Origin: Sphyrna mokarran
Taxonomy: Eukaryota
Direction: 5' to 3'
Length of the DNA stretch: 64,000 nucleotides
Assembly: GCA_024679065.1 (NCBI GenBank)
Contig: JAGIQG010000002.1
Coordinates: forward strand, 36,580,001 to 36,644,000
A model generated the notes under the pieces. It had not been told where the DNA came from and did no database searches. It was given only the letters and a program-made list of their open reading frames with translations. Within the stretch, counting starts at the first letter, position 1. Each line of letters starts with the position of its first letter. Below, one piece after another: positions 9,264-61,800 of the stretch. The translations under genes were made by a program, and so were the position numbers.

Positions 9264-9979
9264 ATAGAGTCCTCAGTGGTACAACTGAACCGAATATGAT
9301 GTCTTATGGCCTCATGCTGACCACTAAAAACTGTGGCCTTGTACAAATTTATCATTATCTCTTTACATTTGGACCCTAACTCCTTTATATAACCCAAAAT
9401 AACTGCTTTACAATTGTTTGCTAGCCCACAATTGCACTTTTTACATACCTCAACTTCCTCCACTCCATACCCCTTATCTATTTCTTTAAATGTAATCTTC
9501 TATTTCTTGTTTCAATTGCAAAACATATTTACTTCACATTCATTTAAAACAGTTTACATTTATCATTCTCCCGATTCTTCTAACCTGTTGCTGTCCTCCT
9601 TAAGACTCTTCCCTGCAGTTTGATGCATATTTATGTTATCAAATTAGGTGTGAAAAAAGTGGGACTTTGACTTTTAATACACACGTCAAACTTTTGGATT
9701 ACAAGTTTGCATAGAGTAGAATGTGGGTGAATGGCCAGGAGTGCATTGGAATAGTCTAGTCTGTAGATAATATAGATATAACTGAGAGTTTCAGCAACAG
9801 CAGGGCTGGGCAAAGTCAGGCATTGTTACAGTGGTGGAAACAGACGGTCTCAGTAAATAGGAGATTGGAATCTCATCTTGGAATCAGATTAGTTGTGAAT
9901 AGACTGGCTTAATCTCAAAACAGTTAGAAGAAAAAGGGGTGGAGTTGATAACCAGGGTATAAAGTTTGAAGGTCCAAAG

Positions 9980-11731: not shown

Positions 11732-11822
11732 ACAATTGGCTTCAATCTTTCCAATATTTAACAGCACTGTCTCTGTGGAGTGCACATTTTCTCCCCATGT
11801 CAACATGGGGTTCCTCCGGTTT

Positions 11823-13457: not shown

Positions 13458-13730
13458 GGTGGCACAGTAGTTAGCACTGCTGCCTCACAATGCCAGAGAT
13501 TGGGATTCAATTCCCAGCTTGGGTGACTGTGTGGAGTTTGCACATTCTCCCCTTGTCTGCATAGGTTTCCTCTAGGGGGCTCCATTTTCCTGTCAGTCTG
13601 AAAGATGTGTGGGTTGAGTGGATTGGTATTGCTAAATTCTCCCTCAGGTGCTGGACCGTGGTGACTAGAGGATTTTCACAGTAACTTCATTGCAGTGTTA
13701 ATGTAAGTCTACTTGTGACACTAATAAACT
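13458..13730 (+). mobile_element. V-SINE with a non-CR1 tail
   Basis: A-box TGGCACAGTAG, B-box-like GATTCAATTCC, V core, and tail GGATTTTCACAGTAACTTC...GTGACACTAATAAA. The same tail is at 12462-12530. Confidence 0.8.
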
Positions 13731-15565: not shown

Positions 15566-18500
15566 CTTATGATCCCAGCTGCGTTGTAACTGGATGGGAA
15601 GGTCCTGGGCTCAAATAGTAATTTTACTATTTTAGAAAATGTGAAGGAAGAGAGTCATAGGGCCACTAATTAGTCTTAACAACATGAAATAAATGTATTT
15701 AAACATGAAAAGTTGGATGGCGATACAATGCTCTTACCTCCCCTTCAGATTAACAAGTACACAGATTTTAAGATTAATGTTGATTACAAAGTATAGCTTA
15801 AGCTACGGTAGTCTTGGTACCACAAAGTCCTTTTAAACACCCAAACTGGTTTTAGCAAAACACATTTTTTGCTGTGAAACCAAGTGTCTGTGGATTTCTC
15901 TTTAGAATTCTGCCCAAATGATTTTTATACCTTGAACCATCTTGTCCAACTGAACTCCAGCTTCCACACGAATGATTTAAATTCTGCTTTCAAAAGGTAC
16001 ACTTCTTTTAAATAGCGCTTTCTTTTAGTGTCAATTAGAAACATAGAAAAACTACAGCACAAACAGGCCCTTCGGCCCACAAGTTGCGCCAAACATATTC
16101 CTACCTACTAGGCGTACCTATAACTCTTTATTTTACTAAGTTCCACGTACTTGTACAGAAGTCTCTTAAAAGACCCTATCGAATCGGCCTCCACCACCAC
16201 TGCTAGCAGCCGATTCCACGCACCCACCACCCTCTGAGTGAAAAACTTACGCCTGACATCTCCTCTGTACCTACTCCCCAGCACCCTAAACCTGTGTCCT
16301 CTTGTGACAACCTTTTTAGCCCTGGGAAGAAGTCTCTAAGAATCCACTCGATGAATATCTTATACACCTCTATCAGGTCACCCCTCATCCTTCGTCTCTC
16401 CAAGAAGAAAAGACTGAGCTCTCCCACCCTATCCTTATAAGGCATGCCACCCAATCCAGGCAACATCCTTCTAAATCTCCTCTGCACATTTTCAATGGCT
16501 TCCACATCCTTTCTGTAACGAGGTGACCAGAACTGAGCACAGTACTCCAAGTGGGCTCTGACCAGGGTCTTGTGCAGCTGCAACATTATCTCCTGACTCT
16601 TAAACTCAGTTCCTCGATTGATGAATGCCAGTACACCATATGCCTTCTTAACCACAGCCTCTACCTGCGAAAATGCTTTGAGTGTCCTATGAACTTGGAC
16701 CCCAAGATCCTTCTGCTAAGAGTCTTACCCTTAATATTATAATCTGCCATCCTTTTTGACCTGCTGAAATGAATCACCACACGCTTATCTGGGTTGAAGT
16801 CCATTTGCCACTTCTCTGCCCAGTTGTGCATCCTATCAATGTCTTGCTGCAATTCTGACATCCCTCCACACTATCCACAACATCTCCAACCTTTGTGTCA
16901 TCAGCAAACTTACCAACCCATCCCTCCACTCCCTCATCCAGGTCATTTATAAAAATCATAAAGAGCAAGGGCCCCAGAACAGATCCTTGCTGAAGTCCAT
17001 ATAAACCACAACTACTGCTCTTCCTTCGTCAATGTGTTTAGACACATTCTCAAAAAACTCAACCAGGCTCTTAAGGCATGATCTGCCTTTGACAAAGCTG
17101 TGCTGACTATTCTTGATCATACTACACCTCTCCAAATGTTCATAAATCCTGTCTCTCGGGGTCTTCTCCATCAAGGACTATCTTTTCTCCCTTTCTTGAA
17201 TAAAGGAACCACATCCACAATCCTTTGGAACTACTCCCCTTTCCGTTGATGATGCAAAGATCATTGCCAGAGGCTCAGCAATCTCTTCCCTCGTCTGCTG
17301 CAGTAATCTGGGGTATGTCCCATCTGGTCCCAGCGACTTATCTAACTTAATGCTTTTCAAAAGCTCCAATACACCCTCTTTCTTAATGTCTGCATACTCA
17401 AGCTTTTCAGTCCTGTAAGTCTGCACTACAACCACCAAGATCCTTTTTCACTGTAAACGCTGAAGTAAAATATTCATTTAGTACCTCCACAATTTCTACC
17501 GGTTCTATACAAACCTTCTCACCGTCACACTTGATATGTTCTATTCCTTCACGTCTTATCCTCTTGCTCTTCACATACTTGTAGAATGCCTTGGAGTTTT
17601 CCTTAATCCTACCTGCCAAGGCCTTCTCATGACTTCTTCTGGTTCTCCTAATTTCCTTCTTAAGTTCTTCTAGGTCTCTAGCATTACCTAGCTCTCTGAA
17701 CCTTTTGTAAGTTTTTCTTCTTGACTAAAGTCATTACAGCTTTCATGTACCACAGTTCCTTTAGCCTATCATAACTTCTCTGTCTCGTTGGAATGATGCT
17801 GTACAAAACTCCAGGCAAATATTCCTTGAAAATTTGCCATATTTCTTCTGTACATTTCCCTAAGAAAATCTCTTTTGAATTTATGCCTCTAATTTCCTGC
17901 CTGATAGCTTCATAATTCCTCTTACTCCAATTAAACACTTTTCCTAGTTTGTCTGATCCTATCTCTCTCTCTAATGCCAATGTAAAGGAGATAGAGTTAT
18001 GATCACTATCCCCAAAATGCTCTCCTACTGAAATCAGACGCCTGTCCAGGTTCATTTTTGAATACCAAATCAAGTACAACCTCTCCTCCTGTAGGCTTAT
18101 CCACATACTGTATCAGAAAACCTTTCTGAACGCACCTAATAAGCTCCTTCCCATCTAAACCTTTTGCCTTAAGGAGATTCCAATCGATACTTGGGAAATT
18201 AAAATCTCCCATCACAACAACTCTGTTATTATTACACCTTTCCAGGACCTGTTTCCCTATCTGCTCCTCAACATCCCAGTTATTATTGGGCAGTCTATAG
18301 AAAACATCCGGTAAAGTTAATGACCCTTTTTTCTGAACCTCTACGCACAGACACTCCATAGACAATCCCTCCATGGCGTCCATATTTTCTACAGCCGTGA
18401 CACTATCTCTGATCAACAGTGCCACTTCCCCACCTCTTTTTCCTCCTTTCCTTCTGAAACATTTGAAACCTGGCATTTTAAGTATCCAGTTCTGTCCTTG

Positions 18501-20281
18501 AGTCATTCAAGTCTCTGTAATGGCCACTACATCACACTTCCAAATAGCGATCCATGCTCTCAGCTCATCTACTTTGTTCACAACACTCCTTGTGTTAAAA
18601 TAGACACATCTCAAACCTTTGGCCTGAGAGCTCCTCTTCTCCAACACCTGTCTATTCTTCTCCCATTGTTGACAAGCTCTCTATTTGTGAGCTAACCTCC
18701 TCTCTCCCAGTACTTCACTTTGATTCCCATCTCTCAACCATTCTAGTTTAAACTCTCCCCAGTAGCCTTAGCAAAACTCCGGCCAGGATATTGGTCCCCT
18801 GGGATTCAAGTATAACTCGTCCTTTTTTTTTTTTAACAGGTAACACCTGCCCCAAAAGAGGTCCTAATGATCCAGAAACCTGAATCCCTGCCCCCTGGTC
18901 CAGTCCCTCAGCCACGCATCCTCTACCTCTTTTTCCATTCCTACTCTTGCTGTCTCGTGGCACAGGCACCAATCCCGAGATTACTACCTTTGCATTCCTT
19001 CTTCTCAATTCTCTACCTAAATCCCTATATTCTCTTTTCAAGACGCCTTCCCATTTTCCACCTATGTCAGTAGTACCAATATGTACCACGACCTCTAGCT
19101 CCTCTCCCTTCCACTTCAGGATATCTTGGATGCGATCAAAAACATCCCGGCACCGGGGAGGCAAACTGCATTCGAGTTTCTCGACTGCCTCCACAAAATT
19201 GCCTGTCTGACCCCCTCACTGTAGAGTCCCTATCACTTTTGCTTTCCTCAGCCTTTGCTGACCCTTTTGAGCTACAGGATCGGATTCGGCGCTGGAGGCA
19301 TGGCTACTGCTGTTTCCACCAGATAGGCTGCAGCCCCCTCCAACAGTACTCAAACAGGAATACTTATTGCTAAGGGGCATAGTGACCGGTGTATTCTCTA
19401 GTACCTCACCTTTCTGCTTCCTAAGCATGACCTACTTGCCTGCATCTCGAGGCCATGATGTGACCACCTGCCTGTAATTCCTATCTGTCACCTCCTCATT
19501 CTCCCTGACCCGACAAAGATAATCGAGCTGCAGCTCCAGTTCCCTAATGTGGTCCTTAGGAGCTGCAGCTTGACACACTCTGCGCAGATATGGTGTCTGG
19601 GAGACGAGGAGACTCCAGGACCTCCCACATCTGACACTGAGAACAATAAACTGATCTCGCGCTCATAACTCCCCTTTTCTTCAAATTCCACAAAGAAAGA
19701 AACTAAGAATTAAACCTACCTTGCCTTGCTCGTTTCCGCCTAAGCCCGTTGAGCCAAAGCCCTTTAGCTCTGCTACCTGCTCACTCTGCTGCCCGCTGCA
19801 TAGTGCAGCCTGCTTTTTAAACCTTGTAAGTTGACAAACCATTCCCAGGTCACCCCTCAGCCTACTTCAGCTTTACTATTAAAAAAACTTATCTTAAAAA
19901 AAGAGAAACCCTGTAAGATTTGCTTACAGGTTTTACATCTTCCCACTTAAGGATTTCTTTGTCTTTGCAGTTGCTTAACTATCGATTCCTAGACTGTTAA
20001 AATGGCATTAAACATTTACTTCTGAAGTCTGCTTCCTCTTTTTAAAACTGGTTACTGTAGTTGTCTCTAAGTTAACCTTCTCAGCTTTGCCTGTCTTTAA
20101 TGAACAGTTCGCAGTGCTAGAATCTTTAATCTCCATCTTTTTAAGACATTTCCTATCCCAGTTCACTGGTTATCTAGTCCTTCCTTTTACACAGAAACAC
20201 TAAATTAAACACACTTAAAACTACATTTCATTTTTAACATTTACTAATATAAATCCCTTAACTATATTTGTTTTCCTAACA
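15566..20281. mobile_element. Possible old solo LTR split by the CR1 at 16036-19860
   Basis: Non-coding blocks at 15566-16035 and 19861-20281 end in ...CCTAACA and interrupt a pyrimidine-rich repeat. The 5' TG and a TSD could not be resolved. Confidence 0.3.
16036..19860 (-). mobile_element. Near full-length decayed CR1 LINE with esterase ORF1
   Basis: ORF1 Cys motifs (about 19570-19660), SGNH esterase (VVVHIGTTD, VVISGL), APE endonuclease (VVMGDFNFP, SDH), RT with an internal deletion near 16985, and tail. 5' boundary approximate. Confidence 0.9.
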
Positions 20282-26794: not shown

Positions 26795-27212
26795 AGGCAG
26801 CCTTCATGATAATGACAGTGCAGTGTCGTTGAGCAGAGACTGATAGCCAAGTTCCGCACACATGAGGACGGTCTCAACCGGGATCTTGGGTTCATGTTAC
26901 ACTATCTGTGATTCCCATGACTTGCCTGAATTTGCAAAATTTCACTAACTATCCTGTCTGGAACAGTACACATTCTCTTTAACCTGTGATTAATGGTCTT
27001 TCCACTCATTGTCTGTACTTTTAAGACCTGATTATCTGTAAAGATTCGAATTCCAATGATTTAGTTAGTAAATTGAGTTTGTGTCTTTATATGCCCTGTT
27101 TGTGAATATAACTCCCACTCATCTGACAAAGGAGCAGCGCGCTGAAAACTAGTAGCTTTTGCTACCAAATAAAACTATTGGACTTTAACCTGGTGTAAAG
27201 TCTTCTTACTGT
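26795..27212 (+). mobile_element. Penelope-like element 3' fragment with pseudo-LTR
   Basis: GIY-YIG C-terminus (EQRLIAKFRTHEDGLNRDLGFM), decayed hammerhead motif at 27123-27150, then AATAAA...TTGGACTTTAACCTGGTG. Confidence 0.75.
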
Positions 27213-27604: not shown

Positions 27605-30600
27605 TTGATGTTCATCCATTGTCATCGATGAGGACCTCGGCACCATTAGTCATTTTGAAGCTGGTTGCAGTGTGTCCGAAGATGACTGATCAGCCAATTC
27701 GGGCATGGAATGTCCTGGTACATATTGGACCGACTTGTGTAGACACTGTAGTTGTTGCGCTGGTGGCTGTGGACTTGCGCAGTTGTGCTTAAGTTGTGCT
27801 TTAACAATGCACCTTGCTTTGTGAACTTGACAGCCTTTGTGGATGAAACAGTGCCAGAGAGTGGCTTTGTGCCAGCGTTTCCCAGGTGGACATGTCTATG
27901 TCATGTTACTTCATGGAGGCTTTGAGTGTGTCTTTGAAACATTTCTTCTGCAGTCAATGCAAGCGTCTTCCAGCAGAGTTCCTCAAAAAGGAGCTGCTTC
28001 GGTATGCACTCGTCTGACATATGGATGACATGACCTGCCCATCGGGTCTGTGCTCTCATCAGCAGTGTGTGGACTGATGGTAGACTTGTTCTAGAGAGAA
28101 CTTCAGTGTCTGGTATTTTGTCTTGCAATCGGATGCGTAATATTTATATCAAGTCATGTGGAAATGATTGAGCTGTCTTGCATGCCTTCGATACACAGTC
28201 CACGTTTCATAGATATACAGGAGGGTAGTGAGTACCATGGTGCTGTAAACCTTCAGTTTTGTTGCTGAGCTGATTCCTCGACATTCCCATTCAGTGGAGC
28301 ACAGTCTACCAAAAGCAGAACTTGCCTTTGTTAACCTCTGCATCTATAGTCACTGCTTGGGAGAGGGTGCTACCAAGATAAATGAACCAGCCCACTGCCT
28401 GTAGTTCCTGCTCTATGATTGTGATTATGGGTTCTGTGTATGGTGCGTGACTTCGGTCTTTTTAATGTTGATGGTGAGTCCAAAGTTGTCACATACCATG
28501 GAAAATTTGTTCATACTGACTTGCATCTCTGGCTCTGAGCCAGCATACAGGACACAGTCATTGGCAAAGAGGAAATCTCTCAGGACAGTCTCCTTCACTT
28601 TGGTAACAAATTGAAGTCTCCAGTAGGTTGAAAAGCTTCCCATCTGTTCTGTACTTGAGGCTGATTCCAGCAATACTGTCCTGGAAGGCATCATTCAGCA
28701 TGGCAGTAAACATCATGCTAAACAGTGTGGATGATGATGGATGAACAACAAGAATGTATCTTAAGGTAGCTGTATCCTCACCAAAGCACCAAAATTCTTC
28801 TTGTAATATGGAAGCCAATACTGTACAGATTTCTCAATCTGAAATATTTTATAAGTTCACAGTGTTTGATGCTCTTGGTGACTGGAAATGCCTCAGAGGA
28901 TTCTCCACCATCCAGTACTCTGGCTGTCATGGAGCTGGCATACCATCTGAATGAATTTAGGGGGGCAGCCGAACTTTAACATGATCTATCACAGGCCTTG
29001 TCGGCTTACAGTATCAAAGGCTTTTGCGAGGTCAGCAGAAGTTGTGTAGAGCTAGCAATTCTGCTCCTGACACTTCTCCTGAAGTTGACATGCAGCAAAA
29101 ATCATGTCAGTCGTCCCATGACCTTTGTGGAAGCCACACTGTGACTCTGGAAGCATGCCCAGCTCCAAATGAGCGACCAGACGATTTAGCAGGACTCTTG
29201 CAAGGGTTTGCCTGTGATGGAGAGCAGCGAGATTCCTCGGCAGTTGTCACATATTTACTGATTGCCCTTCCTCTTGTACAGATGCACGATGGAAGCATCT
29301 TTAAGTTCCTGAGGAATGGATTCTTGCTTCCAAAAGGACTAGAACAATTCGGTGAGCTTTTTGATAAGTGCAGGACCTGCAGCTTTAGGGACCTCTGCGG
29401 GTATGGCATCTGCCTCTAGGGCTTTGCCATTGGATAGCTGGCTGACAGCTTTTGTGACTTTGGCTACTACTGGTGCATCATCCATGGCGCTGTTGATGTC
29501 AACCTGGGGAATCCTGTCTATTGCCTCATTGTTAATAGATGACGGTTGGTTGAGGACTGCTTTTAAAGTGTTCAGCCCATCTCTGCAGGATCTAAGCCTT
29601 CTCTGTAATGAGAGTTGAACCATCTGTACTCAGGAGGGGGGAACCCCTAAGAGATTCAGATCCATATAGAGTGTTGAGGGTTTCGTAGAACCATTTCAAG
29701 TCATTTTTGTCAGCATATCCTTGTATTTCATGTGCTTTGGCGCTCAGCCAGGCACCTGCAATTTACGTAGTTTATTCTGGACTGTCCTGAGAGCACTGGT
29801 AAAAGCATTTTTCTTGGCAGCTGAAGATGGGTTGTTCTGACAGGCCTGATGAAGACTGTGCTTTTCAACAAGTAGACCCTGTATCTCCTTATCATTCTCA
29901 CCAAACCAATCATGCTGCATGCGGGTAGAGGACCCGAGCGTTTTCAGCACAGATGTATGAATAGCATCCCTGAAGCGTTTCCAGTTGTTTTCAGCACTGC
30001 CTGTGAGGTGTAGGTCAGCAAGCTTGATTTCTAAGTGTTCAGCCAGTGCTGAAGCTATGCTGGAGTTCTTTAGCTTGGCTGCATTGATTCTTTTCATCAC
30101 TTTTCTTCCTTGTGGTCACCTCTTGAGTCTGATGCGGAGCCTCATTTTGGAAACAACGAGCCTGTGATCTGTCCAGCAGTCAGCACCACATGTGGCCTTG
30201 GTTACTCTGATGTCCTGCCTGTCTTTTTTCCTGACAATGACATAGTTGATAAGATGCTAATGCTTAGAGCGGGGATGCATCCAGGAGGTCTTGTTACAGG
30301 TGGGCAGATGGAAAGTTGTGCTGGTGACGAGGAGGTCGTGTGCTGCACAGGTCTTCGGTAAGAGTAGGCCACTGTCATTACATTTGCTCACTCCGTGCCT
30401 CCCAGTGACTCCCTGCCAGACTGCAGAATCACACCCTACTCTTGCATTGAAATCGCCAAGCAAGATCAGCTTGTTGGTACTGCTCACTGCTGATAGTAGG
30501 GCATCTAGTTCTTCATAGAACTTTGTCTTTCATCTCGTCTGGGTTGTTTATTGTGGGGGCATAGGCGCTGATCAGGGTGGCTTGACTTCTGTTCTGTAGT

Positions 30601-32575: not shown

Positions 32576-32645
32576 TTCTCTTATCTCTTGGACAATGCCA
32601 GCCTAGCACTGCCCATCAGGTAGCAAACATCATCCTGTCCTTAAC

Positions 32646-34623
32646 GAATTAAAGTTAATTCGCTGGTTAAAAGGAAAAAGGAGGCTTATGTCAGGATGAG
32701 GCTTGAAGGCTCAGTTAGTGTACTGGATAGCTATAGATTAGCCAGGAGGGAGCTAAAGAGTGTGTTGAGAAGAGCTAAAAGGGGACACGAGAAGACTTTG
32801 GCTGATAGGATCAAGGAGAATCCTAAAGCTTTCTTTAGATATGTTAAGAATAGAAGATTGGTTAGGGCAAGATTAGGGCCAGTCAGAGACAGCAGTGGGA
32901 AGTTGTGCGTGGAGCCTGAAGAGATTGGAGAGGCACTGAACAAATATTTTTCTTCGGTATTCACGCAGGGAGATGTAAATGTAGTTGTGGAGAACACTGG
33001 GATACAGGGTTGCAAACTGGAAAGTACTGAAGTAGATAAGGAGGATGTGCTAGATATTCTTGAGGGTTTGAAGTTAGATAAGTCCCCTGGGCTGGACAGG
33101 ATTTACCCTAGGATTCTCTGGGAGGCGAGAAAGGCAATTGCAGAGCCTCTGGCTCTGATCTTCAGGTCGTCGTTCATTACAGGTATAGTGCCGGAAGACT
33201 GGAGGATAGTGAATGTGGTCCCATTGTTCAAGAAAGGGAATAGAGACTTTCCTGGGAATTATAGACCGGTGAGTCTTACTTCTGTTGTGGGCAAAGTATT
33301 GGAAAGAATTATTAAGGATAGGATTTATAGTTATTTAGAGAGAAACGAATTGATTGGGGATAGTCAGCATGGTTTTGTGAAGGGTAGGTCGTGCCTTACT
33401 AACCTTATTGAGTTTTTTGAAAAAGTGACCAAAGAGATGGATGGGGGTAAGGCAGTTGATGTGGTATATATGGACTTTAGTAAGGCGTTCGATAAGGTGC
33501 CCCATGGAAGGCTTCTGCAGAAAATGCAGATGTATGGGATTGAGGGTGATTTAGCTAATTGGATTAGGAATCCATTATCCATGATAGAAGACAGAGGGTG
33601 GTGGTTGATGGAAATTATTCATCATGGAGTTCGGTTACAAGTGGTGTACCTCAGGAATCTGTTTTGGGGTCCCTGCTGTTTGTAATTTTTATAAATGATC
33701 TGGATGAGGGTATTGAAGGATGGATTAGAAAATTTGAGGATGACACCGAAGTCTGAGGAGTGGTAGATAGTGAAGAGGGGTGTTCTAGTTTGCAGAGAGA
33801 CTTAGACAAGTTGCAGAGCTGGGCCGAGAGGTGGCAGATGGAGTTTAATGCGGAAAAGTGTGAGGTAATTCACTTTGGCAGGAATAACAAATGTGTAGAG
33901 TATAGGGCTAATGGTAGGACTCTTAATAGTGTTGAAGAACAGAGGGATCTTGGTGTATATGTGCATAGATCCCTGAAAGTTGGCAATCAAGTCGATAAGG
34001 TTGTTAAGAAGGCATATGGAGTCTTAGCTTTTATTGGTAGGGGGATTGAATTTCGGAGCCGCAACGTCATGTTGCAACTGTACAAAACTCTAGTGCGGCC
34101 GCACTTGGAGTATTGTGTGCAGTTCTGGTCCCCACATTATAAGAAAGATGTGGAGGCATTGGAGAGGGTACAGAGGAGGTTTACCAGGATGTTGCCTGGT
34201 ATGGAGGGCAGGTCTTATGAAGAGAGGCTGAGGGATTTGAGGTTGTTTTCGTTAGAAAGAAGGCGGCTAAGAGGAGACCTTATTGAAACATATAAGATGA
34301 TTAGAGGTTTAGATAGGGTGGACAGTGATAGCCTTTTCCCTAGGATGGAGAAAGCTAGCACGAGGGGACATAGCTTTAAATTAAGGGGTGGTAGTTATAG
34401 GACGGATGTCAGAGGTAGGTTCTTTACCCAGAGGGTGGTAAGGGTATGGAATGCCTGCCTGCTGCAGTTGTAGATGCGCCAAGTTTGGTGGCGTTTAAGA
34501 GGTTAGTAGATAAGTTTATGGATGAAAAGGGAATGGTTTAGGTTAGAGGGTCATTGCTTTTTCCAAATTGGTCGGCGCAACATCGAAGGCCGAAGGGCCT
34601 GTTCTGCACTGTAATGTTCTATG
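32646..34623 (+). mobile_element. CR1 LINE, 5'-truncated, same family as 2445-4683
   Basis: 329-aa and 237-aa ORF2 pieces, TTCTATG tail, and TTAAC TSD at 32641-32645 and 34624-34628. Confidence 0.93.
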
Positions 34624-38650: not shown

Positions 38651-39766
38651 ATTAATTCTTGGGTATTATTATTTTTGCAATTTTTATCTTTGGACACTGG
38701 CGCATCCTTGGGCTGGTGCACTCTGTTCTGTCCTGCCACGTTTTGGTAACCATTTCCTTGCTATTCTGCTGTGTCTGTTCTCTAGTTTTGCATCTTTTCT
38801 CGCCCCCACTGTTTAGCTTAAAGCCCCCTCCACTAGTTATATGACTTGAAGTTTCTATTGTCCATTAGCATGGGATCAGAATTCCTATGTGTGACAATGA
38901 TTTACCTTTCTACTAATATCCATGGACTCGATAACTAGCAGATGTTACGCTGCCTGATTCTCTGTCTGACATCAAGTCATGAATGAAATAAGTTTTCTGC
39001 AGTTTAGCATTTGGCAAGATTGAAGTTACATCATACTGTGTAACCACTGAATATTTAGCATTATGATTATAATCTATATTGCCATAATATTTTATTGACA
39101 CTGGCACACTATTTTAATTGAGGCATTGAAATCTATTAAGTTAACACAACACAAAAATTTCATTCAAATGAGTTAAATGCCTTCAAGGCTTAGAACTTTA
39201 AATTTCACTGAAAATTCTACCCCCTACAACTAATTTTGATGTGTTCCAATGAGAATTAAGATGACGAGATGCAAACGTGACCTGGATCAAGGCAAATGCA
39301 AGTGGAATATTGAACATCTCCGACGGCAAAATTTGTGAACCTAATTGTAAAATTGGTATGACATGAAATTGATATTTTTCTGTGGTACCCCCTCCCCAGT
39401 TGCAGCAATAAGAATGCAGACATCCTGTGATACAATGCACTCAGTGACTGGTTTAAGTAATTGCAACTCAGTATCACTCAGTGATACTATGACACCATAG
39501 AAAAGTTGTTTTATGCAAAGATTTATGTGCTGAGAATATCATACATAATTTTGGGAGTAGGTGGGGATCTGCAAATAGATTAATGCTTACATTGGAGAGC
39601 ATTTTGAATTGAACTCATGAAATCATGCGGATATGAGTTAACCCAAAACTTGCTGTGTGTTTACAATTGTCAGGTAGCTCAATTGATTATGGATGTACCT
39701 AGTGAAGTTTGCAAGACAATTCTTTTTTGTTCAGCACAGATTTTAATTTTTCTGTGATCTCTGCAG

Positions 39767-41110
39767 GAAGCAGTACGGTCTTTTGGAGTGATGAACACTG
39801 TTGAGACTGTTGTCACAGAGGACTCCATTATAAAGAACGGCAATTATGAAGGCAATTTGAGGGTCACTGTTTCTCCAGCTGAGAATGAAAGTGATTCAGA
39901 AAGCAGATTGAATGGATATCATCAGATTGAGGCCACACCTCTTAACAATGTATTGGCAAAGGGCCTTGTCAAAAAATGCCTTTACAAAAATGTGAGGCAG
40001 GAAGAAGAGCATTTTACTTTGCCTACAGCTGAAGTGACCAAAGATTCAGTGCACAGACTTCATAAACCTAGCCCTTCACCTCCTTGGGGAACCACAGTAA
40101 TAGAAAATTCTGTGAATTTTAGCCAAGATCTATGTCACACGATACCAGAAGGGATGATTCTGTCTGAAAATATCCACATCACAGACTCTTTAAAGGGTTC
40201 TTTGCCTAATGCTGCCCAAGAATATCATGAGAGTGGATTTCAAGAGAGAGGTCAAAATCAGCAAAACAGAGCGAAGAGAACCTTTGATCAGGTGGATAGC
40301 AGCCCATTTTCAGCCTGCTCCCGCAGGAAGAAATCTAATTTTGAGTATAAACGTGGATGTGAAATACCAGAATTTCAGCCAGTTGCTAGCACTGGTTTAA
40401 CCAGGGAAATACAGGCACTGGAATTGAGTTCTGCAATAATAAACGGCAAATGTTCTGATGTGACTAGTGGGGACTTGGAAAACACTAGTATTTCAGAAAG
40501 AATACCTGACAGTATACCTGTCACTTGCTTAGCCAAAAATTTGTTGAGTGAACTGGATGAGCAATGTGAAAAGGAGGACTGTAAAGATGACTTTAATTGC
40601 AGCTTTCATACTGATGAGAATGACAGGAGTCTGAAGAGAAATTTGAGCCTGTATTCAGCCTCTTCAACTCAGGATGCATCTTTCATAGATCATTTTGAAA
40701 AAGCACTTGATGCAAGTACCAAAGACACTTCATTTGAAGAGTTCACAACTAAAGACAAAGTAACCCCACAGTCTTCTGTTTTGCATAAAACACTTGCTTT
40801 TCCTCCGTGTACTGCTCCAAAGCATCAGAATGCAAGTGATGATAGTAAGCAGTACATCACCCACTCAGTAGAAATCAATTACGATCAGCCATCGTTCTCA
40901 AGCAATCCTTTGACTACATACCAAAAGAAGCCTATTGTAGGATTCCGAAGTTATTGCAGTCCGATATACGAATCTGATTTGTCCATGCAATCCAGGATGA
41001 GTATAGATTCTGTCGAGAAAATGGATAATTCCCTTTGCACTGGGAGCTACCCACAGGCTATGACACCTCTGCCAAGAGTCCAACTTTACAGGCTAACTGG
41101 ATCATTTCAA
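39767..41110 (+). CDS. MASTL: MASTL coding exon 8 (large exon, non-conserved middle region)
   Basis: ctgcag|GAA...CAA|gtaagt; 1344 nt open. Contains the Greatwall islands KRTFDQVDSSP, STGLT, AKNLLSELD, VGFRSYCS and AMTP. Confidence 0.93.
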
Positions 41111-42129
41111 GTAAGTTTTTTTTGGCATTGCTACGTGAGCTCTGAAAACCTTGTTTAAAAGAATGCAAACAGTACAAATCATTTTTTAAAAAAGAAATTA
41201 TATTTTAAAACTGGTTTCATAACTTCTCCCATATTCTGTCACGTTGATGCAGAGAAAAACGAGCCTGGAATTCTGATTACACAGGCCAGCTGGACTATGC
41301 TCCACATCTATTCCTCTGTTAGCATATTAGACCAAATGCCTCTTGAGATGATAATAAAATCATCTATCAGCTCCATTTAAGGGTTTGAAGCCCAGATTGC
41401 TTGTTTTTTCAGCTTTTAAAGGCAGTGGTGCTTGGAATAAATAAAAGACACTCTGCACCACCACACAATGGAAATAAAAAGACATTTCTTCCACTTAACA
41501 GATGCACGCACACACACCACTAATTTCATAAATACAACATGCAGGTATTGAGACCTGAAAATGTTCTTTACTGAAATTGCAAACTTAATAATTTATCTGG
41601 ACATGAGCTATAAAATATATAAAAGCACACATAACAGAACTTTCTTTGCAGCGGAAATCATGGCAGGCAGAAATATACTTGATTTGACATAAGGCAAATC
41701 CGTTTCCCAAAAGTGGGATAAACTATTGGAATTTATTCTCTTGACTATTGGGGTAGATTAAAAGCAAATCGAGCTTCTCAACAAACCATATTGGAAGCTT
41801 TGTTTGTATTAATGTGCTGTGAGTGCTCATTAAAAGGCCACCTTAGAATTATTTTTTCCCCTTCCAAATTTAAGTTTCTTGTCAGTGGGTAATTAGAATG
41901 TTCAGTTTGTGGAGAGCCCCACTTCATTCATGGCTTTGAGGTCAGCACGTGCTGCTTTTGCCTTCCTGTTGGCTGCTCACTCTTTTGTATTGGGTGCCGT
42001 AACACAAGTTGCTCTAAGGCTGGGCACAAGAAGTACTTATCTATTTATGAAGTTTTCTGCTACAATGTGTATTTTGACCAATGAAAGTAAGCTTGGAGTT
42101 CTCACAGTTCCACATGCTACAAAATTGGC

Positions 42130-44889: not shown

Positions 44890-47692
44890 ATGAAATCTGT
44901 ACTTGTGTCATTGTTCATTTTTATATCTGTCGTGTTTGTTTACTTGCGACTATATAGTACATGTTATGATAGTGAATTTTGCCTTAGTCCTGGGAACTGT
45001 CATTTAAGAAAATTGTTCATTATGTAAAAGGAAACCTGGTCACATTTCACTTTGTAAAGAATCATTTTGTCACAGTGAAACACATGAAGATTTAAAAAAT
45101 AAACTTATAGTGAGAATCTAAACTGAATTCTAAAAATGCATAACAGAATAGTTTAATATTTTGAATAGTCCCTTGCCAAAAGATGCAGTATTAAATGGTG
45201 CGCCATATCATTGGTAAGGTTTTAAAATTTGTTAATCAGATAACAACATATTTCTTCTCCTCATTCTTTTTCCACTGTTTGTCCTTACTTATACTGAAAG
45301 CATTGTCACTTTACCATGGTACAGTTATACAAAGCTGGGCATTTCCGGTACCGCTTCTAAGCAGTCATTCTTCACATGATACATATCAGCAGTCTGTGGA
45401 TGGGGTGAGGGGAAAGGTTAACTTTTATTACAGCTACTTATTTCTCTTATGTGACATCTGCACCAATAAAGATCAATGACAGAACTAACTGAATTGATAT
45501 ATTTTTTCTTTTATCGAAGTACATTAGCTATTGCCCTGAGATCTGCTAACTTCTGCGACAGATTTTGTGATTTTTGGAGTATCTGCTTTGTACCACTAAG
45601 CAGCTTTAATTGACCATGCAAATATTACACCACCATGTAGTGGAGACAGCCAGTATTGCTGCAGAATTTCACATCACTTATGGATCATCTGTGAAGTATT
45701 TTGTCCTTTCGCCATTGGAATTTGATAGTAAAAGAGACCTATTTATTTTCTGGATTTCTGACATTCTACTCATTACATTCTTCCTCCTCTCCACCCCAAC
45801 CCTGGTCAGAACTCATTTCCTTAACTACTGTTTCTTTTTTGCTTCTTTCCTAATGTTTTCCTATCTGGACTCTTAAGAGGCCTTTGATATGGTATTTTAA
45901 GGGCATTCTGGGAGTCTAGACATACATACAAACATATTTATTCGGAATGGGAGTAGGCCCGTCAGCCCCTTAAACCATAAGATCGTGGTTGATTTGATTG
46001 TAATCTCCACTTCCTTGTTAATTAAGGATCTATCTGCTCTGCCTTAAACATATCAATGATAGTGCTTCCATTGACTTTTGAGGAAGTTTCAAAAGTCTTC
46101 TACCCTCGGAGAAAAAAATTCTCCTTGTCTCTGTCTTAAATAGGCGATCCTTGTTTTTCAGTAGTGACCCCTAGTTCTAGATACTCCCAAAAGAGAAGAC
46201 ATCATTTCTACATGTTGGCTTTCAAGATCCCTCAGAATCTTGAATGTTTGAATCAAGTATACTTATGATAAACATATATTAGGGCACTCTTTTCAAATGG
46301 ATGTTACTCACTTCCTCATTAAAGACAAGGAGACTGGTCAGGCAGGATTTATACTTCTGAAAATATTTACAATCACTTATTAGGACTTCTTAACCTTCTA
46401 AATGTGCCCCTCATCTGAAGGGCAGTGCTCCAAAAGCTCATGCTACTAAATAAACCTATTGGACTTTAACCTGGTGTTATGAGACTTCTTATTGCAACTT
46501 CCTAAAGACTAATTCCATTATTTTGTCAGTTGTTGACCTAAAATTAATACATATGCCTATACTGAGTTGATAGCAATAACTTGCTTCTAATCCAGTGGAC
46601 CTCCCTTTATATTTACAGATGGCTTCTTCTATCTGTCAGCACCTGTGGTCTCACTTAACATCTTTGGTATTTATTGACTTTGAACACCTTTTTAAAGGCA
46701 CGTTCAAGGCATGACCTCAAGTGACCTCAAAAGCCAAAATTGCTAACTAAGATGGCTTGCGTGTTTCAGTGCTCCCTCTAGTTACTACTCCAGGAAATAA
46801 TAATTTTTAATGTACATTGAAACTTGCAAATTATGGACTCTTGGACCATCTTTTACTTGCAAGTGTCCTTATTTTTAAAACCTAATACATGCACTAAACA
46901 TTGTCAATACAATGGGAAATTATTTACTGACGTAGAGCAGAGGTATTTCTGTCAATGGGATTGAATCCTACAAGCATACAATTGTCAGTGCTGACTTGCA
47001 TGTCCCATGTTTTAAGTTGGATTAGGGCTTGGCGCATTGAAGATAATGAATCATAATTTGCGAGCATCTATGATTTCGGATTACCTCTGAAATATTTTAC
47101 TATGCAAGTCATTTGGGTTCTTGAAGTGTCGATTTGTTCAGGTTTCCTGTGTTACCTTTTTTTTTGTTTTTCAATTTGGGATCTCAGTTACTTGGAAACC
47201 CTTTCTCTGTTGTAATACTGAAAGACTTCCATGGGCCATTACATCTAGTTTCACCAGTTACGCTCATTTCTGATGTTCTGTTGATTCTGCTATAATTTTT
47301 TTTGGATATTCTTGTATATATTTTTAAATCTTCAAATGTATTATCAATCATTTTCATGCTGTTTCTTTATTTCATATTTACTGATTCTTAGTACTTGCAT
47401 ATCCTGTGGATTTGTCATAATATCCTATGTGTTCCATTACTCAGTGTTGTGGGTTTCTATCGCCACCCCTCAGTTAATTTTATTTAAATCATCTCCTTAT
47501 CTTTATATAAACTTGAACCTTTTTAAAGTTGTATGTAGTTCTGGAATATTATGTAATTTTATACAGTTCATTTATCCCTGACCTGTCATATTTTAATCAT
47601 TTATAGTTGCTGCCAGGGTATAATGATTTCTGTTGCTAGTTTTCTACCTGTTTATCTAGTCATTACCAGGTGAAAATGCAATTTACTTCTAA

Positions 47693-48185: not shown

Positions 48186-48924
48186 GATATCCAGTATCTA
48201 TTCTGTTCTGATGGTATCCCAAGCAATCTTGCACTATTTTCATTAGCTTAAATTGCAAAATACTTCTGCATTCTTGTTTTATTATATTGGCTTTTTTGTT
48301 TGTAGTATCTTCCTTAGCACTTTGTACAGCATTCCTCTTTTTAATTAATAGAACAAAGAGCAACACAGCACGGGAACCTAATGGTAGTAGATACTTTGGA
48401 ATCTACCTTTTGTTCTCTTGGCACTTCTATGTCCAGCCAGGCTTGTATTTTCTACTCCCTTGCATTCACAGATTTCATACCTCATAGATCTACTCCACCT
48501 GCTAGTTTCTTTGGCTACTTCCTAAATACTCTAAATCTGGTATTTATCTTTACATTCGTAACTGCAACCTAACTGTGTTTCTGAAATACTTCAAAAGGGC
48601 TGTGCTGGTCTTGAGTTTCATCACCTTGTTGCAATTGAATCTGAATGTTAGGAGCAATTGTCTAAGAGCCTATCAATTTACTTTTTTTGGCTTGTTTTAT
48701 TTTCTCTCTGCTCAATAATTGCCTCTGTATTACCATCTTATTTACACTGTTTGAGAAAAAGAGACTGGTCAGCAGTCAGTCAGGTTTCAAATGTACACAG
48801 AACAATAAAAGCATTTGGTTGGGAAAAAAAACCTAGCTTTCAGCATTTTTTTTGTTTTGCTGACCTTTGTAGTTTTTTATCTAGTTTAAATCCTTCCACA
48901 ATGCCCTATTCATTTATCCACAAG

Positions 48925-49165
48925 ATGGCACAGTGTCTATCACTGCTGCCTCATAGCTCCAGGAACCTAAGTTCAATTTCTGCCTTGGGTGACTCTGTTT
49001 GTGGAGTTTGCATGTTCTCCCAATGTCTTCATAGGTTTCCTTCAGGTGCTCAAGTCTTCTCCCACAGTCCAAAGATGTGTGAGTAGATTGATTGGCCATG
49101 CTCAATTGACCCTAGTATCAAGGGGAGTAGAAGAGTAAATGCATAGGGTTACGACAATAGGGCAC
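48925..49165 (+). mobile_element. V-SINE
   Basis: TGGCACAGTG...CACTGCTGCCTCATAGC head and V core. Confidence 0.75.
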
Positions 49166-51624: not shown

Positions 51625-51871
51625 TAGTAGGTTCGAGAACTTCAAGTTCTTGGGTGAACAGATCACCAATAACCTGTTCTGGTTTCCCCACCCACTCTCA
51701 TGCTGCCACAATAATTAAGAAAGCCCACCAACACCTCTAATTTCTCAGAGGATTAAGGAAATTTGGCATGTCAGTTATGACTCTCACCAACTTGTACAGG
51801 TGCACCATAGAAAGCATTCTTCCTGGTTGTATCACAGCTTGGTATGGTTCATGCTATGCCCGAGATGCAAG
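51625..51871 (+). mobile_element. Rex1/Babar LINE 3' fragment, left part
   Basis: FKFLG...KKAHQHLxFLRGLRKFGMS...LYRCTIESILPGCITAWYG. Confidence 0.8.
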
Positions 51872-52488
51872 TGTTGTAGGTAAAGATACTTCTGAAACTA
51901 ATTGTGAATCAAAGTACAGCAAGTATTTTCAAAAGCTTCTAGGAGGTACATCTGGTACCCAACAGCAGTTCCCCAGGCGTCTCCCTGAACACAAATTAAG
52001 AGTGTGTAAATATGTTTCCCAGTTACGTGTGCATCTTCTCGGTCTCAGCAATTTCCCAGGCTGTGGGTTGTCCTCCATCGTGGAAACATGACCATCTTGG
52101 CATTTCTTCATGATTATCTCAGGGCCGCAATAGATGTGTGTGATTAGCCCTTAGCTAACATACAGGCCAACAAGACAAATTAAAATTAATGGGATAATAT
52201 GCTTATAGATGACAAGCAATACATAACAAGTATATATTTAGGACACACAAGCTTCAGTATGTTAGGCAAAAGTCCACAAACATAAATACAAACTGGGTCA
52301 GCTACACTTCTGAATGGACAATCATAAGCTTGTGTACAACAGCAAGAACAGCTACAGCCTCTCTGGGCATACGAAAACAAATTTTGCATCTATCTGAGGT
52401 ACATGAAAACAAGCTACGTGTAAGTTGCATATTTTTTTTTTTTATTCTCCCAAGTATTACAAAGTTCATTCACCCATTCGCTACTACA
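51872..52488 (-). repeat. 3' LTR (617 bp)
   Basis: TG...CA termini; diverged direct repeat of 56951-57637. Confidence 0.9.
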
Positions 52489-52549: not shown

Positions 52550-53520
52550 TTACTGGCATAAGGGCCTAACTCCTTTGTGAAGCGATCCCTGTATACTTAT
52601 GCCCAATATGACTTGGGCTGTTAGTGTTTTACAATAGATGTTGAATAATGTCATACAAACAAAGTAAGCAATAACAATTACAATTAATCCATGTATCAGG
52701 TAGGAACCCCACGATCCAAACCATTGCCCCAGCCAGCCTGGAGGGTTATTATGATCTTCATTCCCTTCATCTTGTATTGTCTTTGCTACTTGTTTGATAT
52801 GATCTGCCAAGTGAGTTGTGTTCTCTGAAGCATCTGGAATATACATACGATATTTGGAGCTAACTATAGCACATGTTCCTCCTTGGGAGGCTAGCACATA
52901 AACAAAAGCCAATCGGTTCTATAAGACAACGGTCTGGAGAGCTACAACATCCACTGATATCTGAGATGGCTGTACTTACCTCCTTGAACCCATCTTGAGT
53001 CTCATTCTCTCTAGGGTTGAGCCCATAAGTATAAGTTCTTCGCTGCCTTTGCTATCCTGTAGAATGGGTATGCTAGCCTGAGGAATTGCTCTGTTCCACT
53101 AATGGCTCACTTGATCTTGAGCAAGTGTATCTTGGGATGGTTTCGTAAGTCGGAGATAACATGATTCTGAGCAGTCGCACGAAAGCCAAGGATAGGTATT
53201 GTTTCCACAGACAAAATAGGTGCCATTATAGCTAGGCTGGAAATAGGGCCAAGGTCGTAAGAAACAGCAGGAGAATCATTGTATCACTTAATTATAATCC
53301 ACTGTTATACAATGGTCCAAAGGTCTGCACGCAACCTCCTGTGAACCCAGTCGCCCGCGCTGACACGCAATTTCACATGAACCCAAATCTTTCACGCACA
53401 ACATCCCACTTGGAGGTCAGTTGACACTGTGAATTGAGCACATTACATATTGTCAATTGGTGCTGGCATACTTTATCAATTGAGTCCAGTGTTTCCAGAC
53501 TCTTCTGCCTTGCAGATCTA
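52550..53520 (-). pseudogene. Retroviral env remnant with gamma-type TM
   Basis: GTYFVCGNNTYPW (SU), LQTVVL*NRLAFVYVLASQGGTCA (immunosuppressive domain), decayed CX6CC...YIPD, WLGQWFGSW and a hydrophobic anchor. Confidence 0.8.
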
Positions 53521-56635: not shown

Positions 56636-56950
56636 TCTTCCTTCTACTCCGGCGATCAGTCAGACAGATTCTTTCTTACATCTGAACATCACACCCATTT
56701 CTGCAGGCTTCACACCCATTTCAAAATCCTGACCTTCACGTGGGGAGCTACCCCTCTTAACAACCGAAGACTGGGTATAAAGACAGATGCCTCCTTGTCC
56801 GTACGTGTTCAGATCAGACCTCTTTCTCTCTCACCCTTTCACCACAGATGAGCACCTTCTGTGCATACTGTACTTTGACCCACTCCCTTAAGTTCGATGA
56901 ACTATTCCAAAGCTCCAGGATTCAAACAGATCCTGGGTTTCTGCACCAAT

Positions 56951-57637
56951 TGTTGTAGGTAAGGATATCTCTGAGACTAATTGTGAATCCAAGTACAGCA
57001 AATTTATTCAAAAGCTTTTGGGAGATACACCTGGTACCCAACAGCAGTTCCCCAGGCGTCTCCTGGAACACAACTTAAGAGCATATATTTATACCCCCCC
57101 CCCCAGTTACATGTGCATCTTCCCAGTCTCAGCAGTTTCCCAAGCTGTGAGTTGCCCTCCATCGTGGGAACATGGCTACCTTGGCATTTCTTCATGGTTG
57201 TCTCAGAACTGCAATTGACTTGTGTGATTAGCCCTTAGCTAACATACAGGCTGACAAGACAAGTTAAAATTAATGGGAATGGTGTAACAATCTATGTTAA
57301 GTTGCATAGCATGTAATATGTATAATATGTTGGTACATGATACATAAGCAGTACGTAACAAATATATATTTAGGACTTGCAAGCTTCAGTATGTTAGGTG
57401 AAAGTCCGTGAAATTAAAGTTACAAACAGAAATACAAGCTGGGTTAGCTATATTTCTGAATGGACTATCGTAAGCTTGTGTACAACAGCAAGAGCAGCTA
57501 CAGCATCTCTGTCTGGGTACACGAAAATAAATTTTGCATCTATCTGAGGTACATGAAAACAAACGGCATGTAAGTTGCACAATTTTTTTTTCATTTTCCC
57601 AAGTACTATAACGTTCATTAACCCATTCGCTACTGTA
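56951..57637 (-). repeat. 5' LTR (687 bp)
   Basis: Abuts the PBS. Minus-strand TATAAATA near 57085-57092 and AATAAA at 57003-57008. The outer TG is mutated. Confidence 0.88.
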
Positions 57638-58965: not shown

Positions 58966-59104
58966 ACACCACTGCTGGCTACTGTGCGAACTCCTTATAG
59001 AACGCCGAAAAGTGTGCGGAGAGGTCCGGCTCCAACTGAAGGAGAGAGAATTCTGGGAACACCGGATTACTTGGCCCCTGAGTTACTCTTGAGAATGCCA
59101 CATG
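58966..59104 (+). CDS. MASTL: MASTL coding exon 9; gene continues beyond the window
   Basis: attcag|ACA...CAT G|gtaaga; 139 nt; [34 protein letters not shown]. No DWW (subdomain IX) exon was seen before 64000. Confidence 0.96.
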
Positions 59105-60719
59105 GTAAGAGAAACCACCATTATAGCAGCTTAATAAATGTATTTGATGAACAGAAAGTGTTGGAAATAACAAGCAAATCTGTCAGTATTTGTAGGGAAA
59201 AGGTGAGTTGATGTTTCAGGTGCAGACCTTTCCTCCAAGCTGAGAACTGAGGTAACCAAATCCTTCAGTTGAGTGGAAATTGAGTGAGTCAAGTTTTGAG
59301 AATTAAACCTCTTTCCCAATAGCCTCATCACTTCGGAATTGATAAATCATTTGTGCCCTTCATTTGATCTGTTACTTTTGCAGGCTCCCTAATGTGGCAT
59401 AAACATTTTGAATTTTTCTTTTTCTTGTTTCGTGGGTTGTGGGGATGTGGGCGTCCACATTACTGTGGCTCGGGAATCACATTCATTCAGATTATGTAAG
59501 AATGACAGATTTCCAGCCCTAAAGAGCATTAGTGAACCAGATTGATTGTCATAAAAATCTATGATAGTTTCATAGTCACCATTGCTGAAACTAGCTTTTA
59601 ATTCCAGATTTTAATTCTATCTGACATGATACAACCATGTCCCCAGAACATTGACTTGGGCCTCTGAATTATTAGTCCCATCGTATGCTCCAATCATATT
59701 CCTCCATGTAAATACATAGCTTGAATTTATCCACAATGAAAGATGTATGCCACATTCTACAAACCATTGATTTAGCCTTAATTGCTCACCATGTGCAATA
59801 CCATCTTGTATTCTGCAGGCTGGTTATCTTCATTAATAAAGATTATTACAAAAATCGTCCAACCACTAAGCCCATAGAATTTTGTGCTTGCTCTGGCACC
59901 TTAAGTCTGTTTTAATATTGACAACTGCCCACTTTGTATAAAATAGCAACCAGTTACCAAACCACTGTCATATCAACCTGTATCATATACTTCAATATTT
60001 CACATTCACATTGTCCCTTTTACATAAGTAATTTCCCAAGCCAGTGTTAGGAAAACTGACATCATGCCAAAAAGTGTGACCAAAAATTTGCATGAATAGA
60101 TTGATGTTGAGAAGAATTTTAAGAGAGAAAAAGAAATCTTAGGGAAATTCAGAGTTGGACTTAGGCAGTTGAAAGATTTACCACTGACAGCGGATCAGAG
60201 GATTGGGGTATTCATTGCAAGACCAGAATCTGAGGATTAGTGTTTTCAGGACAGGGTCTATAGGGTTGAAGGCAACTACAAAGTTAAGTGAGGATTATGG
60301 ATGGGTTTAAAAACAACAACAACAACAAGGATTTAAAATTTGATCTGGGGATAGAGGGTGCCACTTTAGGTCACTGAGGACAAGGATGATGGGAAAGGGT
60401 AGGGCAGGATATGTTTCTGCAGGAGTTGGGCATGTGTAATTTACATTATATACAATAAAGAAATGACTCAAGCCAGGGGAATCTTGGCAGTAATAAAATC
60501 TGGAAGTCTAAAAGATTTAACAACTGACAGACATGAAGTTAAATTCTTGAAACCAGTTATCATTTAGGGAAATAAAATTATTTGGACTAAGCATGGATTA
60601 GAGTATTTAAGCAAGCTGCTTTATTTAACTACGTCTATATACTAGGTGCCAAGCTCTGATTATACATGTACTATTTTTAAATTTAAAAATTTCCTATTTC
60701 AAACTTTAGGTTGTGAAGT

Positions 60720-60759
60720 ATCGCTTCTCGGCCTTTTGGCTAAGATCAAGTGTAGTATC
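60720..60759 (+). pseudogene. RNU2: U2 snRNA 5' fragment (nt 1-40)
   Basis: ATCGCTTCTCGGCCTTTTGGCTAAGATCAAGTGTAGTATC is identical to the vertebrate U2 5' end. Similarity stops after nt 40. Confidence 0.92.
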
Positions 60760-61029
60760 AATATACTGTGCTTGGTTGAAGTCATTAGGTTACGTTTTAG
60801 CTTCACTTGAAGCAATTTTTAAAAGCGGCCTCTTGGCCTTTTGGCTAAGATGCAAATGAGATCAAGCCTTGGAGGCGGAGCTAATGCCTACTCCAATCAG
60901 CTTGGATCATGTAGATCAAGCCCAAGACAGGAGGTGAGAGCCCTGTCTTGTCAGCTTGGATCGGGAATGTCTCAACTTGTTGAGACTCTGAATTGAATTG
61001 GACTTGATTTGATTGAATTGGAATAAAAA
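60720..61029 (+). mobile_element. Candidate U2-headed SINE-like or chimeric retroelement
   Basis: U2 head, structured body, second U2-like motif at 60828-60851, (GAATT/GATTT)n tail, then AATAAAAAC. Confidence 0.55.
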
Positions 61030-61589
61030 CAAAGTTCTACAATATGGTAAGATTGTTGCAATCTAAGCACTTTTATTATTGCAAGTGGCAGTAAGTAGAG
61101 TAGGTGCAAAATTAGAATCAGTTAAGTGATGCATGTTCTAGGGTTTATTAGCTGTGGTGCTTTGCCTCAATGGAACATGTTAAAGTCAGATTACTTATGT
61201 TTCAATTAAAAGATTCGAGGTGTGAAATTTTGCTGCAATATATCCTGTCCCATTGGAATTGGCAAAGTTGCTTAGTAGTCACCTATTTTAACTTGAACTA
61301 ACAAGGTGATAGTATTATAAATTATAGCATACAAGTTAATTTTCTTTCACTAATTTTGGCAAAATACTTAGATTTTTCTCAAACCTTTTTATATCGTTGC
61401 ATGTAACTCTTTATTTAAATTGTCAATCATAGGATCTAAAATTGCTTAATGTTCGTACTTTATCTTTTAAACTTTAAGATGCATTCAATGCTTCGATAGT
61501 TTAAAGGCAGTGGTAATAAAAAGCTCCTCAAATGGCAGGGCTGGCTTCATTATCTCTCTAACCTCAGTGCTCAGTGTTCCTTGCACTCA

Positions 61590-61800
61590 CATTGTTAGCC
61601 ACTTTAAGACTTGAATAGCAGATTAGGTGTAAGGATTCGCATTCTAATCAGCAACCTGTAAACTGTCTGTGCTGATATGTGTGCTTTTGGAAACCAGAAC
61701 ACCTCATTCACCTGACGAAGGCACAAATGCCAAAAGCTAGCAGATTTACTATTAAATAAATCGGTTGGATTTAAAATTGGTGTTGCCAGACCTCTTACTT
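61590..61800 (+). mobile_element. Penelope-like pseudo-LTR fragment
   Basis: Similar to 27010-27212; CTGACGA-hairpin-AAAAGCT at 61712-61738. A shorter copy is at about 46405-46495. Confidence 0.65.

Follow-up and report, generated by a model that had tools for sequence, protein, structure and literature searches.

A candidate U2-headed retroposon with an antisense arm over its head in a MASTL intron of Sphyrna mokarran

What kind of sequence begins with an unchanged piece of U2 snRNA, continues through a series of hairpins and sits in the intron of a kinase gene, and what are its hairpins for? An earlier note on this DNA had singled out two hairpin modules with identical scaffolds and different inner stems, and had proposed that they form a repeated protein-binding RNA motif or a conformational switch that masks the U2 segment. 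Our analysis leads us to favour, with moderate confidence, a non-autonomous retroposon of the SINEU/SIDE-like kind that depends on a U2-targeting LINE for its movement, a family reading built on one copy and on a putative partner LINE. The features on which we base the argument are collected in the table.

The window, that is, the whole 64,000-nt stretch of DNA that was analysed, is vertebrate DNA with many LINE remnants (reverse transcriptase family match in Pfam, E 4.8e-18), and its plus strand carries the MASTL/Greatwall gene, two exons of which have Greatwall as their best match (E 8.8e-10 and 5.6e-13). The U2-headed element lies about 1.6 kb downstream of the exon end at 59104, in the next MASTL intron and in sense orientation. 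An open frame of 466 aa at 39758-41158, to which Pfam gives no family, is consistent with what we take to be a large, non-conserved middle exon of MASTL. Pfam found no family for five of the six window ORFs submitted, and a tRNA search of the window found none. Two direct repeats of about 600 nt, 86-90% identical (51868-52441 and 56947-57591, about 5.1 kb apart), enclose a minus-strand ORF at 52550-52918 that has no Pfam match and presumably resembles a retroviral envelope transmembrane region; together, the repeat pair and the ORF are probably a decayed endogenous retrovirus inside a MASTL intron. Three copies of a further repeat, which we assume to be Penelope-like, contain a decayed core resembling a hammerhead ribozyme (about 27120-27200, 46410-46480 and 61710-61790); none of the three matches the intact core pattern. 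The window also holds a minus-strand LINE remnant at 28985-30115, which looks RTE-like to us and whose submitted piece has no Pfam match, CR1-like LINE copies on both strands (1528-7391, 9963-11156, 16115-19215 and 32645-34561, some 90-98% alike) and SINE-like repeat copies (11483-11820, 13530-13728 and 49000-49046) that we take to resemble the shark HE1 family, a likeness that would point to a cartilaginous fish host. A perfect palindrome composed of A and T only lies at 60673-60690, 30 nt 5' of the element.

Table. Features of the U2-headed element, its flanks and the preceding host exon, in window coordinates.
Feature	Position	Strand	Description
MASTL/Greatwall kinase exon	58966..59104	+	GT donor at end; top match Greatwall, E 0.014
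5' flank	60713..60719	+	6/7 to U2 nt 31-37, 9/10 if extended by the first three bases of the element; resembles the U2 target immediately 5' of where Utopia/Keno cut
Whole U2-headed element	60720..61035	+	316 nt, non-coding
U2 snRNA nt 1-40, unchanged	60720..60759	+	Rfam RF00004, 54.8 bits, model position 1 at 60720
Antisense arm	60763..60791	+	pairs ungapped with U2 nt 11-39 over a 4-nt loop; two 2x2 internal loops
Short palindrome, then U-rich tract	60800..60822	+	Rfam aligns the tract to the U-run of the U2 model
Second, decayed U2 piece	60828..60851	+	U2 nt 4-27, 22/24 identical
Hairpin module 1	60860..60908	+	8-bp outer stem, bulged purine, 1x3 internal loop, 6-bp inner stem
Hairpin module 2	60914..60962	+	scaffold as module 1; inner stem 9 bp, loop 10 nt
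Third hairpin	60969..60986	+	palindrome with 8-bp arms; folds as 7 bp and a 4-nt loop
3' tail	60988..61035	+	degenerate repeats of 5 nt; AATAAA (61022); ends in a few A-rich bases and lacks poly(A)
Proposed 3' flank start	61036..61038	+	TCT, equivalent to U2 nt 39-41; AATAAA starts 14 nt before it

The two modules are located where they had been reported, each 49 nt long and repeated with a period of 54 nt, and the description of a common outer scaffold around differing cores is borne out: the scaffolds are identical at 21 of 21 positions and the cores at 10 of 28 (ungapped; Fisher p 1.8e-6). The scaffold pattern has two matches in the window and none in 100 shuffles. That the inner stems differ and yet both pair perfectly is correct insofar as both cores are paired, but the perfect inner pairs of module 1 number only six, against nine in module 2. 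Paired cores of this kind are rare, since among 63,972 window 28-mers 29 have at least six terminal pairs and a single one, module 2, has at least nine. In each module the six outermost pairs of the core are all Watson-Crick, although at four of them neither base is shared between the modules. The third perfect hairpin likewise exists as a palindrome, but its predicted fold gives up one of the eight pairs, and such palindromes are not rare (17 rows with 8-bp arms and a spacer of 0-4 in the window, at 12 distinct sites by our reading).

Taken together, the modules and the third hairpin (60856-60986) fold at -49.8 kcal/mol with z -2.93 (1 of 200 shuffles is equally good), but 3 of 186 GC-matched windows of the same sequence have folds of equal quality. 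In the ensemble of the whole element each module pairs with itself, the inner stems having probabilities of 0.86-1.0, and cross-pairing of the 5' arm of module 1 with the 3' arm of module 2 costs +5.2 kcal/mol. The register of the bulged purine in the outer arms is ambiguous, with three registers falling within 0.6 kcal/mol.

Does this amount to a structure conserved despite sequence change, as was claimed? We do not find that it does. A core identity of 10/28 is no more than chance would give (p 0.16). Homology of the cores is therefore doubtful, and the four double changes do not qualify as compensatory substitutions. One could then suppose that the element is a retroposon whose modules are unselected by-products, arising by tandem duplication, with cores rewritten by template switching and no binding role. 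Chance-level core identity fits such a picture, as does the folding of the modules by themselves, which on the minus strand (z -4.42) equals or surpasses that on the plus strand (z -2.95), and template switching can make perfect stems in one step (PMC8794818, in the part drawn on here). However, both cores are exactly 28 nt long and abut the same 1x3 loop, and the scaffolds have 0 differences in 21 positions as against 18 in 28 for the cores. We consider modules of this purely accidental kind improbable.

The proposal of a repeated structural motif fares better and extends beyond the modules. One 8-nt word, corresponding to U2 nt 24-31, opens three hairpins of the element, the head hairpin and both modules, and the same 6-nt word closes each of them; the 8-nt word occurs four times in the window, and its fourth occurrence, outside the element, is without the 6-nt closing partner. 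Since the head hairpin and both modules share this outer helix, the three hairpins appear to be related, and because the word pairs recur in all three the modules look like derivatives of the head-hairpin helix. We infer from these shared words that modules 1 and 2 descend from the head hairpin and were doubled with the 54-nt period.

Constant arms around variable paired cores are also, in outline, the form of cassette sites. It might therefore be asked whether the hairpins act as single-stranded DNA, in a miniature DNA transposon, a rolling-circle element or a recombination-site-like cassette, possibly of foreign origin. Beyond the outline likeness, the good folding of the minus strand would suit this idea. 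With DNA parameters, however, the outer four module pairs are lost and the energies are only -7 to -12 kcal/mol, and the G-U bias described below points to RNA. Scans elsewhere point the same way: a stricter scaffold pattern has 0 matches in prokaryote genomes, and the looser pattern has matches at 23 metagenome loci and 5 viral loci, all 28 of which we judged to be chance matches, sharing the pattern but neither the inner architecture of the modules nor any likeness beyond it. We regard a single-stranded DNA role as very improbable.

By eye, the head of the element is identical over nt 1-40 to the U2 row printed in supplement 1 of PMC4640811, with both CpG kept. Identity to U2 stops at nt 40; the remainder of the U2 model aligns poorly and the 3' half of U2 is absent. 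Directly behind the head comes an arm that pairs with it at 25 of 29 positions, with 17 Watson-Crick and 8 G-U pairs and with its 4 mismatches confined to the two 2x2 loops and including no A-C; the next-best pairing reaches at most 22/29 at every other window position. The resulting hairpin, 62 nt in size, has z -5.75 on the plus strand and -2.76 on the minus strand, and when the head is held fixed and the arm shuffled, none of 1,000 sequences folds as well. The duplex energy of -27.6 kcal/mol is lower than that of all 2,550 sampled windows, and all 8 transitions in the arm are G-U compatible on the plus strand (p 0.022). Moreover, since the head is unchanged U2, all 12 departures from perfect pairing fall on the arm, and by simple arithmetic a 12:0 split has a probability of 0.5^12 under symmetric decay. 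Because the decay of a local fold-back would hit both sides, this split suggests that the head was held constant or renewed while the arm adapted.

These pairings bear directly on the masking that the earlier note had proposed. The U2 segment is indeed predicted to be masked, by a dedicated arm that had been overlooked and not by the arms of the modules, and the region so covered includes what we take to be the U6-pairing and branch-point-reading segments. The module arms are complementary to U2 nt 25-31, which is what makes a switch conceivable in which their 3' arms alternate onto the U2 head. In the predicted ensemble, however, such pairing has a probability of 0.000, which stays at 0 even when the true arm is blocked, and imposing it carries a penalty of 16.5 kcal/mol for one module and 17.0 kcal/mol for the other. 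We reject the conformational switch on these thermodynamic grounds and find it barely credible.

Over its full length the element folds with z -5.42 on the plus strand and -3.16 on the minus strand, and only one stop-to-stop frame of at least 55 aa, of 57 aa, overlaps it. The U-rich tract behind the arm we take to be Sm-site-like, in a non-canonical form. The second U2 piece, 5' of module 1, folds as a fully paired stem-loop I, with a match score above those of all background windows. Rfam and descriptors of HDV and hammerhead ribozymes detected no ribozyme, with 0 descriptor matches on either strand of the element. Weak Rfam matches to CAESAR (E 0.099), mir-218 (E 8.8) and Ysr35 (E 3.6) lie far under threshold and were rejected.

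Could the element be a single-copy functional intronic RNA, such as a U2 variant, a splicing modulator or a small-RNA precursor, selected at the MASTL locus? An unchanged head with both CpG, strand-specific G-U pairing, sense orientation in the intron, the precursor-like size of the head-arm hairpin and the alignment of the U-tract to the U2 model would all be compatible with such a role. On the other side, U2 is the one Rfam family to reach threshold in the element (the best other match has 21.7 bits versus 45, E 0.099) and its 3' half is missing, the head is predicted to be sequestered, refolding of native U2 stem-loop I within the element costing +9.6 kcal/mol, and the junctions are insertion-like. 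We give a locally selected RNA little credence.

The junctions themselves return us to the retroposon that we favour. The empty site rebuilt from the flanks matches U2 nt 31-40 at 9 of 10 positions, with one base common with the head. These junction tests were chosen after inspection of the sequence, and the 14-nt spacing from AATAAA depends on the junction assignment. A match as good as that of the 5' flank occurs at 86 of 63,993 window positions (0.13%), or at 1,003 (1.6%) if any of 10 registers is allowed. The 3' junction by itself is weak, since 7 of the 55 AATAAA sites in the window have the same spacing and the U2 likeness in the 3' flank comprises only three bases. Other 9/10 matches to U2 nt 31-40, these without an adjoining U2 head, are found at 48300-48309 (plus strand) and at two minus-strand sites, and serve as a gauge of how frequent target-like sites are in the window.

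How do these ends compare with those of U2-targeting LINEs? In the parts of PMC4640811 used here, the 3' flanks of Utopia and Keno begin at U2 nt 39, crocodilian off-target insertions of Utopia lie in partial U2-like targets with duplications being rare, and, by eye from supplement 1, reptile Utopia elements end without poly(A), their AATAAA standing 12-15 nt ahead of the junction. The tail of our element has 8 A-rich bases after AATAAA, its longest A run being 5. By eye, 61002-61027 resembles the end of starfish Utopia, with a stretch just 5' of AATAAA that matches at 16 of 17 positions; its 10-nt core occurs in only that family within supplement 1 of PMC4640811, and its pattern is absent from 100 shuffles. 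Since the tail is of low complexity, this likeness may be chance. No long target duplication flanking the whole element was found, and an 8/9 repeat ending at 60712 and 60791 was judged to be chance.

The 5' match fits equally well with a tailless U2 retrocopy flanked by a 10-bp duplication. Among direct repeats at this boundary the best is a near-repeat between 60713-60722 and 60750-60759, identical at 9 of 10 positions, and tailless retrocopies insert at sites complementary to their last 2-18 nt with duplications of 8-35 nt (PMC5322556, in the part consulted). On such an account the element would be a one-off composite, in which a tailless U2 retrocopy (nt 1-30/40, with the 10-bp duplication) or a single template-switch chimera came to lie on a structured remnant that was already there and had no relation to it, and the lack of a second copy elsewhere in the 64,000-nt window agrees with it. 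A composite, however, leaves the adjacent 29-nt pairing with the head unexplained. The upstream flank is not an older partner of the arm, its -9.7 kcal/mol being equalled by 63% of background, and it is not a decayed U2 piece either, since 48% of background reaches its score; a fold-back formed after insertion should decay on both sides rather than 12 to 0. We consider a composite origin unlikely.

As for copies beyond the window, the sequencing runs listed with words from the element number 24, from 13 studies; one has a share of 0.74 and 23 have shares of 0.21-0.36 (ten organism codes), and among those listed none is recorded as an RNA holder. Such shares cannot separate an orthologous intron from dispersed copies, and we do not count them as evidence. 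Of the 42 sampled words, about 0.8 would be expected from the U2 head by itself, so the shares probably include more than the head.

How could a retroposon of the kind we favour have arisen? Its ancestors may have resided in U2 genes, inserted at nt 38/39, with the U2 promoter driving their transcription. Alternatively, a fresh head could have been gained by a template jump to U2 snRNA; jumps to snRNA are recorded, in the literature as sampled here, for SINEU-2 and for R2 with U12. The arm would then have evolved to pair with a head kept constant by the host, with the consequence that the chimeric RNA has a stable fold and is kept from working as U2, which may be the purpose of the masking. 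Tandem duplication of a head-hairpin derivative would have given the modules, whose role would lie in RNA structure, most likely as a docking or stabilising element for the protein of the partner LINE. Finally, a U2-targeting LINE, Utopia-like by the 3' end although Keno is possible, would have inserted a copy of the entire RNA in the MASTL intron, at an off-target site resembling U2. R2 RNAs offer a precedent for keeping the U2 head, since some 28 nt of host RNA from upstream usually stay attached to them, anneal to the target and help to form the 5' junction (PMC13580325, in the part used). Going further, and only tentatively, we suggest a short non-autonomous parasite of U2 genes in cartilaginous fish. 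It would be mobilised by a LINE of the Utopia or Keno type that has yet to be reported, would retain the host's U2 5' end on its RNA under an arm that covers the splicing-active part, and would use one helix, present three times, as a recognition module.

PMC4494074, in the portion drawn on, poses the transcription of SINEU elements as an open question. Where the body of an element is co-adapted to a U2 head that has not changed, transcription from U2 genes is to be expected, and the question becomes testable. If confirmed, our reading would bring another vertebrate group within the range of U2-headed retroposons and of U2-site targeting, and would show how a selfish RNA can carry a splicing-active snRNA segment without exposing it. 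Were the U2-gene parasite real, it would also provide a concrete route from insertion in U2 genes to heads of the SINEU type. A one-off composite, on the other hand, would reduce the locus to an ordinary retrocopy next to old hairpins.

It remains to place the element among known systems; the statements on published families that follow hold for the parts of the cited papers used here. Among the papers listed in the literature searches, none dealt with a U2-headed element in cartilaginous fish or with an antisense arm over a U2 head. A U2 snRNA gene is a poor comparison, since full-length U2 with its Sm site and 3' stem-loops is missing. Tailless U2 retropseudogenes (PMC5322556) share with the element a U2 piece that starts at nt 1 and ends early, together with a near-repeat at the boundary, but they have no co-adapted arm or further U2 modules and are described for therian mammals. 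The SINEU-1 elements of crocodilians are SINEs headed by U1 or U2 snRNA (Kojima 2015, PMC4494074): like them, our element is short (under about 500 bp) and non-coding, has a U2-derived 5' head and was probably moved in trans by a LINE. Repeated addition of U2 heads and partial duplication are SINEU traits (PMC4494074), and here too an older U2 piece seems to stand behind a newer one, with a partial internal duplication. SINEU, however, has poly(A) and many copies of one structure, prefers Mariner-N4 as a target with Tx1-Mar as its likely mobiliser, and is found only in crocodilians (PMC4494074), whereas the element has no poly(A), a putative U2-like target, a probable cartilaginous fish host and an antisense arm over its head, a feature not described for SINEU.

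Utopia comprises non-LTR retrotransposons of the RLE type that target U2 (Kojima and Jurka 2015, PMC4640811). It resembles the element in AATAAA shortly before a tail-less end, and would also do so in a junction equivalent to U2 nt 38/39 and in a partial U2-like off-target site with little or no duplication, if the junctions are as proposed here. The element differs from Utopia in having no ORF, and thus neither reverse transcriptase nor restriction-like endonuclease, and in not being flanked by U2 from nt 39 onward. Table 1 of PMC4640811 has no Utopia from cartilaginous fish, its supplement 1 has no shark rows, and the excerpts used mention no non-autonomous forms. Keno, a U2-specific Tx1 LINE, uses the same U2 site and occurs in vertebrates but, unlike the element, is protein-coding (PMC4494074, PMC4640811, PMC6136364). 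Like the SIDEs of R2 (Eickbush and Eickbush 2012, PMC3414825), the element would be short and non-autonomous, would ride on a site-specific LINE and would be transcribed together with a host RNA gene, and if the U2-gene parasite reading is true it would be their ribozyme-free counterpart. R2 SIDEs target 28S rDNA, have ends derived from an autonomous element of their own genome and carry a 5' self-cleaving HDV-like ribozyme, of which no trace was found in the element; in the element, by contrast, the host-derived head seems to have been kept and covered.
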